From a virus (Duplodnaviria; Caudoviricetes), in the IMG/VR virus record IMGVR_UViG_3300029288_000002, positions 101,308 through 165,307 of that record: a stretch of 64,000 nt of DNA. One strand, given 5' to 3'. Below the pieces are notes generated by a model, which saw nothing but the letters and a program-made list of their open reading frames with translations, ran no database searches and had not been told where the DNA came from. The position numbers and the translations under genes were made by a program. Of the stretch, positions 10,778-47,005 are shown piece after piece (within the stretch, counting starts at the first letter, position 1; each line of letters opens with the position of its first letter).

Positions 10778-11299
10778 ATGAAATATAGAATTGGTTTTGT
10801 TAGCAATAGTTCAAGCACCAGTTTTACTTGCTGTTTAACAGGCGAAGAGATTTCTGGTATGGATTTAGGGTTAAGCGATGCCGGAATGTATGAGTGTAAA
10901 AACGAACACATCTTTTCAGAAAATTTGTTGTTATCTCCTGTTTTCCCAATTGCAGAATGTAGAGAATGGGCTGAAAATAAATGGTGTGATGACGAATATA
11001 TGAAAGAAAAGTATGCGGTTTTACATTCTCATATCACAAACGCGGAATTTCTAAAATGGTTTACCGAAAACGAATTTATGAACGAAATGTTGGAAGATGT
11101 AGAAGATTCCAGATATGATGTTGATCCTAAATGCTGTCCTGTTTGTCAGTTTGAAGACCTCCCTTATGAGGATGTAGCTAAATATTATCTATTACTTGCC
11201 AAACTGACACGTAAAGAGTTTGCCAAAAAGATGAAGCGAAAATTTAAGACCTATAACGCCTTCTCAGAATATCTAAAAGGAGTGAATCATGAAAATTAG
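10778..11299 (+). CDS. SNSSS-leader protein 1 (with CPVC zinc-ribbon-like motif)
   Basis: N-terminus MKYRIGFVSNSSSTSF. Confidence 0.75.
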   Translation: MKYRIGFVSNSSSTSFTCCLTGEEISGMDLGLSDAGMYECKNEHIFSENLLLSPVFPIAECREWAENKWCDDEYMKEKYAVLHSHITNAEFLKWFTENEFMNEMLEDVEDSRYDVDPKCCPVCQFEDLPYEDVAKYYLLLAKLTRKEFAKKMKRKFKTYNAFSEYLKGVNHEN

Positions 11300-11657
11300 A
11301 ACAGGTTTTGTTTCAAACAGTAGTAGTTCATCTTTTCTTTTGGCAGCAGACAAAGAAACAACCAAACTAACCATGACTGTAAATATTGACGTAGACGAAT
11401 TTGTACAATATACAATATCCAACATAAAGGAATTAGGTCGTTATTATTCGGAAGAATTAGAATATGAGAAAGATGACGATGGTAGTTTTTTGTTCAATCA
11501 ACGGGAACTTAGAAAATATAATGCTCTTTTAGACATTTTAAATAGTGGAAAGGAGTTACACTTTGTATCTATTTCAAGTGAAGGTGGTAATACAAACGAG
11601 TTGTTTATTTATGAGCATGGTTTTATTGGTAATGTAAACTTCACAGTAGTTGAGTAA
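11289..11657 (+). CDS. SNSSS-leader protein 2
   Basis: N-terminus MKIRTGFVSNSSSSSF. Confidence 0.75.
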   Translation: MKIRTGFVSNSSSSSFLLAADKETTKLTMTVNIDVDEFVQYTISNIKELGRYYSEELEYEKDDDGSFLFNQRELRKYNALLDILNSGKELHFVSISSEGGNTNELFIYEHGFIGNVNFTVVE

Positions 11658-11667
11658 TATTTAAACG

Positions 11668-11696
11668 AAGACCCTGAATAAAATCAGGGTCTTTTT
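11668..11696 (+). terminator. intrinsic terminator
   Basis: AAGACCCTGA-ATAAAA-TCAGGGTCTT then T run. Confidence 0.75.
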
Positions 11697-11701
11697 GGTA
11701 C

Positions 11702-11730
11702 TTGACAAAGCGAAGATAAAGGTTTATACT
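11702..11730 (+). promoter_or_regulatory. sigma70 promoter of the radical SAM operon
   Basis: TTGACA-N17-TATACT. Confidence 0.8.
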
Positions 11731-11761
11731 AAACGTAAGATTAGACTAAAAAGGACAAACA

Positions 11762-12748
11762 ATGATTCGTAAATATCGCAGCGAAGGTTATAATTATGAT
11801 TTTGATACAAACACTGGTTTCTTTGCACGTTGGGGCAAAACATATGAGGATGATCCACAAATGAGCCCTATTGGAGCGGAGATACTTGACATAGAAGTTT
11901 CTGAAGCATGTCATCAAGGCTGTAAATTTTGTTATAAGTCTAATACTGGTGTTGGTAAGAATATGACTCTTGCTACTTTTAAAACCATTCTTGATAAGAT
12001 GCCGAGTGTTATGCAAATCGCTTTTGGTATTGGTGATTTGTCTGCCAATCCCGATTTGTTCCCGATGATGGAATATGCAAGAAGTAAAAATGTTGTGCCT
12101 AATATTACAATCAACGGAGCAGGGTTAACTGATGAATTAGCTAAAAAGTTAGTATCATTAGTAGGAGCGTGCAGCGTAAGTAGGTATAACGACGACCAGT
12201 GTTATAATGCAGTGAACAAATTAACGTCGCTTGGGTTAACGCAAGTCAATATTCATCAATTAGTAGCAGAAGAAACATACGACTCTATTTGGAAACTATT
12301 AGAGTCATATAAAACCGATACTCGTTTAGCTAAATTAGGTTATATTGTAATGCTTAGTCTAAAGCGCAAAGGTCGGGGAGTCGGTTTTAATCGTATGAGC
12401 GATGAACACTTCTCTGAAATCGTAGAATATTGTATCAACAACGATATACGTGTTGGATTCGACTCTTGTGGCGCAAACAAGGTTGAAAAGATTCTACGCA
12501 ACATGAATCTGCATAATATTGAACAAGTATGCCAAAGCATTGAACCCTGTGAGTCATCGGGATTCTCGGCATATTGCAACGTTGAAGGCAAATTCTTTCC
12601 GTGTTCATTTGCAGAAGGAGAGTTTGAAGGAATTGATGTAGTTAATTGTAACACTTTTTTAGATGATGTGTGGTACAATCCAAAGGTTGTAACCTGGCGC
12701 GAAAGGTTACTTAACCAATGCCGTAATTGTCCTATGTATGATATTTAG
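11762..12748 (+). CDS. radical SAM enzyme with C-terminal SPASM/twitch-like domain
   Basis: CHQGCKFC (CX3CX2C), PNITING, CESSGFSAY.NVEG.FFPCSF, terminal RNCP. Confidence 0.9.
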   Translation: MIRKYRSEGYNYDFDTNTGFFARWGKTYEDDPQMSPIGAEILDIEVSEACHQGCKFCYKSNTGVGKNMTLATFKTILDKMPSVMQIAFGIGDLSANPDLFPMMEYARSKNVVPNITINGAGLTDELAKKLVSLVGACSVSRYNDDQCYNAVNKLTSLGLTQVNIHQLVAEETYDSIWKLLESYKTDTRLAKLGYIVMLSLKRKGRGVGFNRMSDEHFSEIVEYCINNDIRVGFDSCGANKVEKILRNMNLHNIEQVCQSIEPCESSGFSAYCNVEGKFFPCSFAEGEFEGIDVVNCNTFLDDVWYNPKVVTWRERLLNQCRNCPMYDI

Positions 12749-12763
12749 ATAAAGGAGTATAGT

Positions 12764-13222
12764 ATGAAGTTTCGTAACAGGTTTGTTTCTAATAGTAGTT
12801 CTAGTAGTTTTCTGATTACCAATGTCAAAAACGGATATATTGATTTGTCTTGGTTAGCTGGCGATGTTTTAATTGTAAATGACGAACTTGGCAAAACAGA
12901 ATTTGGTTGGGGATATGAAGAATTGTTTGATTGGGGCGATAGAATTAATTTTGCTTATTTACAAACGCAATTTAAAAATAGTAACCCTTCCTGGCTGCCA
13001 ATGCTCGAAAAAGTGATTAGGGCTTTTACTAAAGTTTCTGACATTCAATGGCGCATTACTACCGATTATGATACTCCCGAAGGATATTCTTGGGGATGCA
13101 TAGATCACCAATCAGGAGCTTGTGACAACGAAAACATTGAAATCTTTGAAAATGAACAAAGTTTAAAAGACTTCCTCTTTGGAAAAGACTCTTATATTGT
13201 ATTAGATAACGATAATCATTAG
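12764..13222 (+). CDS. SNSSS-leader protein 3
   Basis: N-terminus MKFRNRFVSNSSSSSF; IDHQS and terminal DNDN. Confidence 0.75.
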   Translation: MKFRNRFVSNSSSSSFLITNVKNGYIDLSWLAGDVLIVNDELGKTEFGWGYEELFDWGDRINFAYLQTQFKNSNPSWLPMLEKVIRAFTKVSDIQWRITTDYDTPEGYSWGCIDHQSGACDNENIEIFENEQSLKDFLFGKDSYIVLDNDNH

Positions 13223-13231
13223 GAGTAAAAA

Positions 13232-13625
13232 ATGAAAATCAGAAACGGATTTGTTTCTAATTCGAGTAGTAGTAGTTTCGTTATTGCCATTAAAAATAAA
13301 AAAGGATTTTACTCAATTTCCATATTGGAATGGAAATATCTACAGTACAGTAGAGGAATTAGATGCTTACTATTTAGACGAGTATTCGTATTTTTCAGAT
13401 GAAGGTAATTGCAAAACTATGGATGGTTTATATGGTCTAATCCCTCATTTGTGCAGATGCGAATTTGATAAATTTATAATTTATCGCAAATGCGTAGAGT
13501 ACATCCAAAAGGGTTATTCTGTATACATTAAATCATTTGATCGCGATTACGACGAGGATTTAATTGAGTCAATTCCGATATGCAAAGGCGAAGACATTAT
13601 CTTAATCTTGCAGAAAACAGAGTAA
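13232..13625 (+). pseudogene. SNSSS-leader protein 4, +1 frameshift in the A6 run at 13298-13303
   Basis: ATG 13232 after AGGAG reads MKIRNGFVSNSSSSSFVIAIKNKK; the body continues in the +1 frame (ORF 13251..13625). Confidence 0.7.
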
Positions 13626-44656: not shown

Positions 44657-47005
44657 ATGACACAAACAGAATTAAAATCTTGGGTGTATGACGCTGAGAC
44701 ATTCCGTAATTTCAATTGCTACACTTTTTATTCACCTGAAACCAAAGAGGTTAAGGTGTTTACTATTGCAATTGCTTTGGGTTATAATGATACTGAAAAA
44801 CTGCGACAGTTTCTTTCTGGTAATCTTTTGCTTATTGGCTACAATAATCTGTCATACGATTTGCCAATGCTTGCATATGCTAACAATTATAAGAATTATA
44901 ACTCGCCTCGATTTAACACAGACTTGTTCAACGTGTCCACAAAGTTAGTGGACAACGATAATCGAAACGATAATGATACACGCAAGTTACGATATGCTAA
45001 ATTAGAGACTTGCAAACAGTTAGACTTAATGAAGCTAATGGCATTTGATAAATTGAAAGTTAGTCTAAAACAAATTGCAATTAATCTAAAGTGGTATAAA
45101 ATTCAAGACTTACCGTTAGAATACGACCATAATGTAACCAAAGATGAAATTGAATTAATTTGGAGTTATAACCTAAATGATGTTATGATTTCAAATAAAT
45201 TATATGAATCTTTACAAAAAGAAATTAACTTACGAATTGATTTGGGTAAGATTTACAACATTGATTTTACAAATGCTTCTGATAGTAAAATGGCAAATCT
45301 TATTTTAGAGAAATTCTATCAAGAAGAAACTGGAATCAACATTAATGATATTAAAGATTTGCGTACAGTACACGAGTCTATTCGATTGGCTGATTGTATT
45401 GTGCCTGGAATTGAGTTTAAGACTAATGAAATGCAAGCTGTATATGATGATATTGCTTCTTTGGTTGTAACTGCTAAAGATGGGTATAAATATAGCAAAA
45501 AATTGTCTTATGGTGAAAAGCAAAGGGTAGAAGATTTACCAATTGCTGATTATATGAAAGAATGGCTATTAAAACCAGAAATAACTCAAATAGTTTCAGA
45601 ATTAAATTTTAATGGCACATCATACGAAGTTGGCATCGGGGGTTTGCATAGTGTAGATGCGCCAGGTAAGTTTGTTGCCAATAAAAACTTTATTATTCGT
45701 GACGCGGATGTTGCCAGTTATTATCCAAACATTCTTATTAATTATAACATTGTTCCTGCACATCTTAGTTCGGATTTCACTAATATTTTGCGTAGAATTA
45801 CAGAAGAACGTATTGCCGCAAAGAAAAGCGGTGACAAAACAAAAGCAAACGGTTTGAAAATTACCATTAATTCTATTTTTGGTAAACTTGGCAGCGAAAC
45901 TTTCTGGTTGCAAGATAATCGTGCAATGTTATCTGTTACGGTGTCGGGTCAACTGATGCTATTAATGCTTATTGAGGCATTAGAATTGGTTGGTATTCAT
46001 ACAATTAGTGCTAATACTGATGGCATTGTGTGTATTATTCCAAAAGAGTTAGAACCAGTATATAATGAAGTTTGTACTTGGTGGCAACAAAAAACTAAGT
46101 TTGAATTAGAATTTACAGATTATTCGTTATATGTTCGCAGCGATGTAAACAATTATATTACTAAAAAGACCAATGGTGAAACTAAGGTAAAGGGTCGCTA
46201 TCTTACGGATATTGACTTAAAGAAGGGGTATCATCACCCAATAGTTGCTCGCGCGATGTATGAATATTTTGTGAATAACAAACCAGTAGACGAAACACTA
46301 CACGAGTGTACTGATATTCTCGACTTTTGTTTATCGCAGAAAATGGATAAGGAGTTTGTATTACTTTATCAAACCGCAACAGAAACCAAAGAACTACAAA
46401 AGACTAATCGGTTTTATGTTAGCAATCACGGCGGTAGTCTTGTAAAGGTCAAGAAAGCCACAGGAAGACGGGATGGTTTAGTGGTGGGTTATCTTACCCA
46501 AATCTTAAATGATTACGACTCCAGTCTTCCTGTGAGCGCATATGACATAAATTATAAATGGTATCAGGATCAAGCATATCAGTATATCAAGAAGATTGAA
46601 AAAGGAAAACAACACGAACAAACCAATCTGTTTGGTAATATACAATCTGCTGATAAACCTGCTACTGTAGGAAAAAAGGCTACAACTAAAAAGAAAAGTG
46701 TATTACAAATGAAGGTTGATAACTACAAAGACTTCTTATATCCTGATGTAGACAAACGATATGTTTTTGTTACCAAAGTTGATAAGTTAGTGGAAACCTA
46801 TTGTTTGGCTAATGGTAGACTAATGCCACTAAAGGTTACTGCCAGCAATAAGCGCAATATTAAAGAAGGAATGATACTATATTGCGAAGTATTTAGAAAA
46901 GATGGTGACAATTGGTGGTTAGATAAGTTTACTGTTTTAACGCCAAAGGAGAAAGAAGAAATATTTGATAACAAATCTAAAGCAGAACAAGTCACGATGT
47001 TTTAG
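44657..47005 (+). CDS. family B DNA polymerase with 3'-5' exonuclease
   Basis: ExoI YDAE, ExoII GYNN..YD, ExoIII YN.ND; DVASYYP, K...NS.FGK, NTDG. Confidence 0.9.
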   Translation: MTQTELKSWVYDAETFRNFNCYTFYSPETKEVKVFTIAIALGYNDTEKLRQFLSGNLLLIGYNNLSYDLPMLAYANNYKNYNSPRFNTDLFNVSTKLVDNDNRNDNDTRKLRYAKLETCKQLDLMKLMAFDKLKVSLKQIAINLKWYKIQDLPLEYDHNVTKDEIELIWSYNLNDVMISNKLYESLQKEINLRIDLGKIYNIDFTNASDSKMANLILEKFYQEETGININDIKDLRTVHESIRLADCIVPGIEFKTNEMQAVYDDIASLVVTAKDGYKYSKKLSYGEKQRVEDLPIADYMKEWLLKPEITQIVSELNFNGTSYEVGIGGLHSVDAPGKFVANKNFIIRDADVASYYPNILINYNIVPAHLSSDFTNILRRITEERIAAKKSGDKTKANGLKITINSIFGKLGSETFWLQDNRAMLSVTVSGQLMLLMLIEALELVGIHTISANTDGIVCIIPKELEPVYNEVCTWWQQKTKFELEFTDYSLYVRSDVNNYITKKTNGETKVKGRYLTDIDLKKGYHHPIVARAMYEYFVNNKPVDETLHECTDILDFCLSQKMDKEFVLLYQTATETKELQKTNRFYVSNHGGSLVKVKKATGRRDGLVVGYLTQILNDYDSSLPVSAYDINYKWYQDQAYQYIKKIEKGKQHEQTNLFGNIQSADKPATVGKKATTKKKSVLQMKVDNYKDFLYPDVDKRYVFVTKVDKLVETYCLANGRLMPLKVTASNKRNIKEGMILYCEVFRKDGDNWWLDKFTVLTPKEKEEIFDNKSKAEQVTMF

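Follow-up and report, generated by a model that had tools for sequence, protein, structure and literature searches.

The genes described here are best explained as a tag-directed protein maturation system, in which one virus-borne radical SAM (rSAM) enzyme serves a changing set of unrelated client proteins that share a short N-terminal tag (estimated probability about 0.58). They are located in a 64,000-nucleotide stretch (the window) of a Caudoviricetes virus (IMG/VR record IMGVR_UViG_3300029288_000002, positions 101,308 to 165,307). We infer that the tag is covalently changed, and likewise the place, the chemistry and the use of this change to the clients; as a best guess, oxidation or cross-linking would occur at the invariant tag residues N10-S11-S12.

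Four plus-strand ORFs, starting at 10778, 11289, 12764 and 13232, begin with MK-x-R-x-(G/R)-FVSNSSS(S/T)SF, exactly as reported in the initial annotation, and a six-frame scan of the window and of the whole 165,307-bp contig revealed no further copy. As was also stated there, all four lie within 1 kb of one radical SAM gene (11762-12748, plus strand): two start ahead of its start codon (by 984 and 473 nt) and two past its stop codon (by 16 and 484 nt). Each is preceded by a GGAG-type ribosome-binding site at a distance of 7-9 nt. Client 1 (10778-11299, 173 aa; tag residues 1-16 encoded by 10778-10825) overlaps by 11 nt with client 2 (11289-11657, 122 aa; tag 11289-11336). Between client 2 and the rSAM gene a terminator-like hairpin was read from the sequence at 11670-11696, plus strand (GACCCTGA, a 6-nt loop and TCAGGGTC, followed by TTTTT), which was not listed by a consensus terminator scan. 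The best promoter site of the region, at 11702-11730 on the same strand (TTGACA, 17 nt, TATACT), ends 32 nt 5' of the rSAM start and matches the sigma-70 consensus at 11 of 12 positions, although its relevance depends on the host. Client 3 (12764-13222, 152 aa; tag 12764-12811) follows the rSAM stop codon after 16 nt, and its body has four tagged relatives in other rSAM loci. Client 4 (13232-13625; tag 13232-13279) had been described as frameshifted, and the +1 shift could be assigned to one extra A in the homopolymer of the run AAAAATAAAAAAGG (13291-13304); the body resumes in the frame of 13251-13625, and with one A fewer a 130-aa ORF is obtained. The region gave no blastn match among GenBank phages, and tblastn of client 3 against phages found none either, a search in which the BLAST low-complexity filter would mask the Ser run anyway.

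The enzyme (328 aa) falls within the Radical SAM superfamily (PF04055; 33.8 bits against a cutoff of 29.5) and carries the CX3CX2C cluster motif C50-x3-C54-x2-C57 (C50-HQG-C54-KF-C57), whose first spacing varies in the alignment of its relatives. Pfam reported Radical_SAM at residues 44-222 and a weak SPASM match at 263-324 and nothing else. The SPASM domain is a seven-Cys C-terminal motif that holds two auxiliary clusters. For the phage enzyme the SPASM model (PF13186) scored 16 bits against a cutoff of 21.5, and the only C-terminal Cys residues invariant in 24 relatives are C236, C263, C281 and C323. The SPASM label originally given to this protein is therefore weak; judged from the sequence, four conserved Cys fit a single auxiliary cluster and thus a twitch-like rSAM enzyme. 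The N-terminal extension of about 40 residues includes a family-specific strand (G19-FFARW-G25), and no RRE (PqqD-like) domain was found by Pfam. Over its full length the protein matches phrog_7293 (E 2.6e-84), which is annotated as 'unknown function', as is phrog_7397, which is matched by some of the tagged proteins. None of its 25 NCBIfam matches at E<=1 is an equivalog; the nearest are the W-cofactor maturase, MftC, NirJ and AhbD. At E<=1e-10 the family comprises 2,820 database clusters.

Across clients the tag follows the consensus M-K-h-R-x-G-F-V-S-N-S-S-S-S-S-F-h-h. The four local copies are identical at 12-14 of 16 residues, yet only at 29-35 of the first 48 nt, and among 417 relatives both the AGY and the TCN codon box are used at every Ser position, with all six Ser codons seen. 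Because of this mixture and the low nucleotide identity, selection acts on the peptide and not on a DNA repeat, in agreement with the initial annotation, and a DNA- or RNA-level element is ruled out. Conservation was measured with tags found through one half of the motif only: with residues 1-8 as anchor, N10, S11 and S12 were conserved in 403/403, 403/403 and 401/403 tags, and with residues 11-16 as anchor, K2, R4 and N10 were each present in 318/318. Position 7 is F in 454 tags and otherwise H (7), Y (6), W (1), L (2), M (2) or S (1), and position 9 is G in two. Past residue 18 conservation falls away. A glycyl-radical reading of R4-x-G6 was ruled out, as G6 is replaceable (client 3 has R at position 6), and the suggested self-cleavage at a Ser-Ser bond, as in pyruvoyl enzymes, found no support.

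To what extent the tagged proteins are related beyond the tag was analyzed by sequence and by predicted structure. About 420 tagged proteins were collected, with lengths from 36 to 257 aa (median 130 aa), and 405 bodies fell into 116 BLAST groups without detectable homology to each other. Among 122 tagged representatives only two had Pfam matches and 14 matched phrog_7397 at E<=1e-5. The four local clients match this family solely over its first 20-28 positions (client 2: residues 1-28 with positions 1-28, E 3.7e-5). The initial annotation had called the four local bodies unrelated, and pairwise BLASTP indeed showed no similarity beyond the tag; nevertheless, the client 4 body after the break aligned colinearly with the client 2 family profile (hhalign probability 79%, E 1.6e-5). 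From these profiles, bodies 2 and 4 are remote paralogues, so that the four clients represent three body families and not four.

This relationship, together with tandem gene arrays that suggest duplication, could mean that all tagged proteins descend from a single domain as ancient paralogues, with the motif as its first strand or active-site loop. Such a common origin is very improbable. Comparison of the nine largest body groups from the first 43 loci detected no homology (hhalign probability <=9.5%), the wide range of lengths does not suit one domain, and the two AF2 models, in which the clients are confidently predicted to fold, differ from each other. Client 1 (mean pLDDT 77) was modelled as a helical domain preceded by a Cys/His zinc-ribbon-like module, with C18, D29, C40, H44, C120 and C123 invariant in its family alignment, and client 2 (mean pLDDT 84), for which a family alignment was also built, as a small alpha/beta domain. 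Neither model had a fold relative in the PDB at E<=0.001 (Foldseek). In the client 1 model residues 13-17 do form the first strand of the body, as a structural role of the motif would have it; residues 1-10, however, are of low confidence in both models (average 48 in client 1 and 54 in client 2) and have no partner strand. The head of the tag is accordingly predicted by these models to be free and outside the client fold, and the clients are not one ordinary domain.

Linkage of tag and enzyme was followed in both directions. Of 43 IMG/VR contigs found through the tag, 35 also carry the rSAM gene, 29 of them within 8 kb and six elsewhere on the contig, so it is uncommon for tagged proteins to occur in its absence. 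Of the eight contigs that lack the gene, six are less than 50% complete; the other two, at 79% and 88% completeness, count against a maturase. Conversely, 74 of 80 loci found through the rSAM gene have 1-13 tagged ORFs within 10 kb, and of the six others, one carries three tags in another part of its genome. This second search was seeded with an alignment of an 8-sequence subset, since the 24-sequence alignment was too diverse as a seed, and because the sequences came from tag-linked loci the count is to some degree circular; a query with the single rSAM protein found only one locus in IMG/VR. In total, the co-occurrence of leader and enzyme seen at the initial locus extends over about 120 independent viral contigs. 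Prevotella Lak phages and Microcystis phage gave weak matches to the enzyme, with 25-31% identity to part of the query, and these were not counted as members. The collection of prokaryote genomes yielded only 12 loci, which are probably mis-binned phage, as all are on MAG contigs and most have the rSAM gene or tag arrays.

The tag was found in T4-like myoviruses, in a 165-kb phage with a polymerase closest to that of crAss-like phages and in contigs of up to about 550 kb. Its presence in T4-like phages raises the alternative that it is a sorting signal sending clients into the virion or another location, with the rSAM link being secondary. The T4 capsid targeting sequence has a similar architecture, namely a short conserved N-terminal peptide on highly diverse, small and fast-evolving phage proteins (PMC3012670). 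It is followed by a prohead-protease site (L/I-x-E), is restricted to phages with that scaffold and differs from the tag, which has another sequence, occurs in unrelated phage lineages and has as its predicted reader an enzyme instead of a scaffold core. Moreover, the tag is common to phages with unrelated virion modules, the rSAM gene is the only gene these phages have in common, no L/I-x-E protease site is conserved beyond the tag residues (positions 19-26 are essentially random), and the binding model described below points to the rSAM as reader. A sorting function is for these reasons quite improbable.

Complex prediction placed tag residues 1-21 inside the rSAM barrel with a score of 0.90, compared to 0.54 for the best of three controls, in line with the proposal of the initial annotation that one enzyme acts on the shared leader. 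Of 80 solved complexes, 58 came up to the mark for this score, as did 2 of 110 mismatched pairs, a calibration that is only rough because custom alignments were used and small molecules were included. The runs shared at least 72% of contacts, with a partner pLDDT of at least 48. In the predicted interface residues 1-21 face nearly all family-invariant residues of the enzyme, and the tag would traverse the inside of the barrel, in contact with the auxiliary-cluster domain and with residues near the SAM site. That the model reproduces a solved complex is less likely, since among rSAM entries of the PDB no sequence relative better than E 0.3 was found. The score of the best control suggests that the cavity attracts peptides in general.

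Variation of the tag points to the same contacts. A tag variant is common to all tags of one genome, and FVT-type tags accompany a branch of rSAM enzymes with 29% identity. A genome with H7 in all four tags has the rare exchange Q85S in its rSAM, and one with L7 in both of its two tags has the rare exchange I112F; according to the binding model, tag residue 7 contacts both position 85 and position 112. This co-variation consists of two events and is not exclusive, as S85 and F112 are each also seen in one case alongside ordinary F7 tags.

Linkage, binding model and co-variation show recognition and not chemistry and would equally apply if the tag were solely a docking handle. It would then stay unmodified and anchor interchangeable adaptor, regulator or specificity subunits, and the true substrate (a host protein, a nucleic acid or a metabolite) would be brought by the client body. 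The occurrence of up to 13 different bodies per genome suits a set of targeting subunits, and K2 and R4 vary no more than N10-S12, which is what a pure binding epitope should show. We nevertheless regard this explanation as unlikely: the tag as modelled threads the barrel interior near the SAM site and would block another substrate, invariant small polar residues such as N10-S11-S12 are unusual for a pure docking strand, and around 96 distinct rSAM loci no third conserved gene family, and thus no gene for a further substrate, was found. Against a maturase, on the other hand, known leader-guided rSAM systems usually use the conserved piece as handle and not as the altered site. In the phage system the conserved peptide may itself be the site of modification, since it holds the most invariant small polar residues.

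If the enzyme acts as a maturase, the reaction could proceed as follows. The head of the tag, unstructured in the free client, would join the N-terminal strand of the rSAM (G19-G25) as a beta-strand through residues 2-7, this strand standing in for the RRE domain of RiPP maturases. F7 would fill a pocket formed by Q85, V/I112, N114, G135, A136 and Q161, and N10-S11-S12 with the rest of the Ser run would cross the barrel between SAM/[4Fe-4S] and the single auxiliary cluster. There, the 5'-deoxyadenosyl radical would take a hydrogen from the tag, at a first guess from the C-beta of a Ser as in anSME, and the second electron would pass to the auxiliary cluster, leaving a two-electron oxidation product (an aldehyde) or a cross-link. 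In this way the same chemical feature would be given to every client of a phage. It is conceivable, though at less than even odds, that this amounts to a general protein-tagging chemistry of phages, in which the rSAM puts a modification not described so far, such as a Ser-derived aldehyde or an intramolecular cross-link at N10-S12, on dozens of unrelated early or accessory proteins and gives them a shared property during infection, such as stability, covalent attachment or targeting.

Among known systems anSME/AtsB resembles this scheme. These rSAM enzymes have auxiliary Fe-S cluster(s) and no RRE, thread a short Ser/Cys motif of a full-length protein into the barrel and oxidise the Ser C-beta. 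The phage enzyme likewise has C-terminal auxiliary-cluster Cys and lacks an RRE, but no anSME model is among its NCBIfam matches at E<=1, and its four conserved auxiliary Cys contrast with two full clusters. Further, the tag has no C/S-x-P/A-x-R motif and is strictly N-terminal, and the clients belong to more than 100 unrelated small viral families instead of one enzyme family. The RiPP rSAM/SPASM maturases (SuiB/StrB, MftC, PqqE, CteB), to whose group the nearest NCBIfam matches of the phage enzyme belong, also have one enzyme for several precursors, whose common recognition peptide is bound by beta-strand addition. They differ in having the RRE/PqqD-like domain; in the phage system, moreover, no leader peptidase or exporter is conserved at the 96 loci and the 'precursors' have 100-200 aa and are predicted to fold.

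Two further families were compared for the motif itself. Triceptide (3-residue cyclophane) synthases are rSAM/SPASM enzymes that link an aromatic ring to the C-beta two residues on within aromatic-X-X3 motifs (PMC11499958). The tag offers F7-V8-S9 and most of its position-7 variants are aromatic (H, Y, W), but L and M are also seen at position 7, as is G at position 9, and the truly invariant residues are N10-S11-S12. Peptides of the FxSxx type pair with the rSAM-SPASM enzyme FxsB (PMC7159879). In that system a metallopeptidase (a zincin) releases FxSxx, which forms the extreme C-terminus of actinobacterial proteins, whereas the phage motif is N-terminal; no FxsB- or XyeB-type NCBIfam match was obtained for the phage rSAM, and no peptidase is conserved.

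A full-text search for the motif strings gave no relevant paper and no published description of the system was found; the paper on the KP15/KP27 genomes is silent on both the rSAM and the tagged genes. If the general tagging chemistry considered above is correct, this would be the first rSAM maturase to have its client set defined by a portable N-terminal tag instead of a RiPP core or a protein family. Should the rSAM modify the tag, the post-translational modification would be new, as would the logic by which a radical SAM enzyme chooses its substrates, and the peptide might serve protein engineering as a portable tag. The 16-residue peptide also links a large uncharacterised rSAM family to small 'dark' phage proteins, of which there are more than a thousand (at least 1,355 clusters), and offers a single handle for their study.

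The presence of the rSAM/tag system in the cultured phages RB43, KP15/KP27, GAP161 and phT4A is new here. KP27 (rSAM KP27_176; KP27_124 and KP27_130 among the tagged proteins), RB43, GAP161, phT4A and CPRSA each encode the rSAM and 2-3 tagged proteins, with E. coli (RB43, phT4A), Klebsiella (KP15/KP27) and Cronobacter (GAP161) as hosts. Since the pair occurs in cultivable phages, the question of a maturase is testable by standard methods, and the tagging chemistry, if true, would operate in phages of E. coli and Klebsiella. The T4-like phages, in which about 20 kb separate the tagged genes from the rSAM gene, are less favourable to a maturase.

Five plus-strand genes are located at window positions 10778-13625: two small ORFs of 173 and 122 aa (clients 1 and 2, starting at 10778 and 11289), a 328-aa radical SAM gene (rSAM, 11762-12748), a 152-aa ORF (client 3, 12764) and a fourth small ORF that is split by a frameshift (client 4, 13232). 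The N-termini of the four clients read, in order, MKYRIGFVSNSSSTSF, MKIRTGFVSNSSSSSF, MKFRNRFVSNSSSSSF and MKIRNGFVSNSSSSSF, as reported in the initial annotation, which had described a Ser-rich leader shared by four ORFs around one radical SAM gene. Each of them is preceded by a GGAG ribosome-binding site. A six-frame scan of the window and of the whole genome returned no further copy of this tag, in agreement with the claim that no other ORF of the window carries it. Over the first 48 nt the copies are only 60-73% identical, and across 417 tagged relatives both Ser codon boxes are in use at every Ser position, confirming that conservation acts on the peptide and not on a DNA repeat. The frameshift was traced to the run at 13291-13304, which contains a single surplus A. 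The four bodies (the client parts after the tag) had been described as unrelated, which held only in part: the downstream frame of client 4 matched the client-2 family profile colinearly (hhalign probability 79%, E 1.6e-5), so that three body families, not four, are present at the locus.

The enzyme scored above the Pfam Radical_SAM cutoff but did not pass the Pfam SPASM model, and only the first half of its assignment as radical SAM/SPASM was thereby retained. Since only four C-terminal cysteines are conserved across its relatives, a single auxiliary cluster is suggested. In the alignment of these relatives the first cluster-motif spacing varies widely near window rSAM residues 46-57, from CX3C to insertions of ~20 residues, whereas the CxxC-Y-K part is fixed; as read from the alignment, some members thus carry a non-canonical radical SAM motif. 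Hint/intein domains (PF07591, PF14890) are inserted within one homologue of 457 aa (P0037). Intein insertions are typically found in important phage genes.

To avoid regex bias, one half of the tag was used as anchor and the other half was read. With residues 1-8 (counted from the start Met) as anchor, N10 and S11 were each found in 403/403 tags and S12 in 401/403; with residues 11-16 as anchor, K2, R4 and N10 were each present in 318/318. G6, F7, V8, S9, S15 and F16 were conserved at 93-97% and S13 and S14 less so, while positions 17-18 were merely hydrophobic and conservation ended from position 19. A triceptide-like F7-S9 cyclophane is conceivable. However, position 7 can be L or M and position 9 can be G, while N10-S11-S12 is nearly invariant; the reaction centre therefore likely lies at N10-S12, the chemistry itself being putative. 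The tag is always located at the start codon. A sorting signal resembling the T4 capsid targeting sequence, an N-terminal peptide on internal proteins, is a less likely explanation.

Seeding IMG/VR with the tag yielded 43 loci, 29 of which had an rSAM homologue within 8 kb and 6 more elsewhere on the contig (35/43 contigs); six of the eight loci lacking rSAM were estimated to be less than 50% complete. When IMG/VR was seeded with rSAM alone and the best 80 loci were kept, 1-13 tagged ORFs were detected within 10 kb in 74 of them, with the caveat that the rSAM seed alignment was drawn from tag-linked loci. One of the remaining six had three tags elsewhere in the genome. The co-occurrence check proposed in the initial annotation was thus positive. 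When all ORFs lying up to 6 kb from any of 96 distinct rSAM genes were clustered, no other conserved gene family emerged, and no peptidase, exporter or RRE protein. Since the tag is nearly absent from prokaryote assemblies (one genome per species; 12 loci only, all on MAG contigs and most with enzyme or tag arrays), this form of the system is viral. The densest array, a row of 12 or more tagged genes spanning 8.9 kb, was seen on a MAG contig labelled Gammaproteobacteria (L137, 866-7786), with no rSAM in the retrieved stretch. In the protein database the enzyme is represented by 2,820 clusters at E ≤ 1e-10 and the tagged proteins (67-214 aa) by at least 1,355, all unnamed or generically named.

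Cultured phages, among them RB43, those of the KP15/KP27 type and their relatives, carry the system as well. Enzyme orthologues of ~43% identity were found in roughly 170 GenBank T4-like phages (Klebsiella, Enterobacter, Cronobacter, Citrobacter, Escherichia). No tagged gene was detected within 5 kb of the KP27 rSAM; a whole-genome pattern search identified two, KP27_124 and KP27_130 (both with the N-terminus MKIRSGFVSNSSSSSF), which share the strand of the rSAM at a distance of ~20 kb. The same arrangement, with two or three tagged genes per genome, was seen in RB43, GAP161, phT4A and CPRSA. All tagged genes of these five phages are annotated as hypothetical, and no paper mentioning the motif or the KP27-type tagged genes was found. 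In the region 63500-72000 of Klebsiella phage KP27, KP27_124 and KP27_130 flank a 738-aa hypothetical protein, KP27_128.

To address binding, a complex was predicted, with controls, from the rSAM alignment and client 2 residues 1-45 with its family alignment, in the presence of SAM and two 4Fe-4S clusters. The complex scored 0.90 and the best of three controls 0.54, the prediction check of the initial annotation thus giving model support for binding. The 0.90 mark is reached by 58/80 solved complexes versus 2/110 mismatched pairs, a calibration that is only rough here because the alignments were custom-made and ligands were co-modelled. Contact agreement between runs was at least 72% and partner pLDDT at least 48. 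The predicted interface comprises exactly tag residues 1-21 and nearly all family-invariant enzyme positions: the family-specific N-terminal strand G19-G25 pairs with tag residues 2-7, F7 touches enzyme positions 85, 112, 114, 135, 136 and 161, and the remaining tag contacts the surroundings of the cluster loop, barrel strands and the Cys-bearing C-terminal domain. As the enzyme has no meaningful sequence relative in the PDB, the prediction is less likely to reproduce a known complex structure. As a prediction, the model supports binding of the tag by the enzyme. Tag variants are uniform within each genome. At two predicted contacts of residue 7, the rare Q85S (Q in 89/93 enzymes) occurs in the sole genome with H7 in all four tags and the rare I112F (F in 2/93) in the sole genome with L7 in both its tags; this co-variation is small and non-exclusive, as S85 and F112 each occur once also with ordinary F7 tags. 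A 29%-identity enzyme branch accompanies FVT-type tags.

A radical SAM protein maturase directed by the tag is the reading with the best support; its chemistry, and what the clients gain from it, are inferred. In the main rival explanation the tag would serve only as a handle by which adaptor subunits dock. A short motif of the whole client protein would be threaded into the enzyme barrel without an RRE, as proposed by likeness to anSME, and one enzyme would serve many substrates through one shared peptide, as RiPP maturases do. By sequence, motif or gene context the system belongs to neither group, and it falls outside the definition of FxSxx-COOH/FxsB.

The client bodies are diverse. The 405 distinct bodies fell into 116 BLAST groups (85 singletons), and the nine largest groups of the first 43 loci, compared profile against profile, matched one another with a probability of 9.5% at most. 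A Pfam match was obtained for 2/122 body representatives and a phrog_7397 match for 14/122. AlphaFold2 models built with family alignments showed a zinc-ribbon-like module (invariant C18, C40, H44, C120, C123) plus a helical domain for client 1 (pLDDT 77) and a small alpha/beta domain for client 2 (pLDDT 84). The two models differ, residues 1-10 have a pLDDT of ~50 and no partner strand in both, and Foldseek found no PDB match for either. This rejects the motif as a regular strand within a domain shared by all clients; a single divergent fold is less likely than the maturase reading. In the client-1 family (window 10778-11299) the tag continues directly into the invariant C18, usually as CxxC, and C18, C40/H44 and C120-P-x-C123 look like a zinc-binding module. 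In the client 1 model, the first body strand is built from the tag's C-terminal end.

The viral contig comprises 165,307 bp at 34% G+C, the window being its final 64 kb. The best GenBank phage matches of its 782-aa family-A DNA polymerase (window 44657-47005) are the uncultured crAss-like phages cr107_1 and cr52_1 (30-34% identity), which hints that this virus is large and related to phages of gut Bacteroidota. The plus strand holds 50/53 window ORFs of at least 150 aa, mostly small genes of unknown function, a picture that large phages typically show in an early or accessory region.
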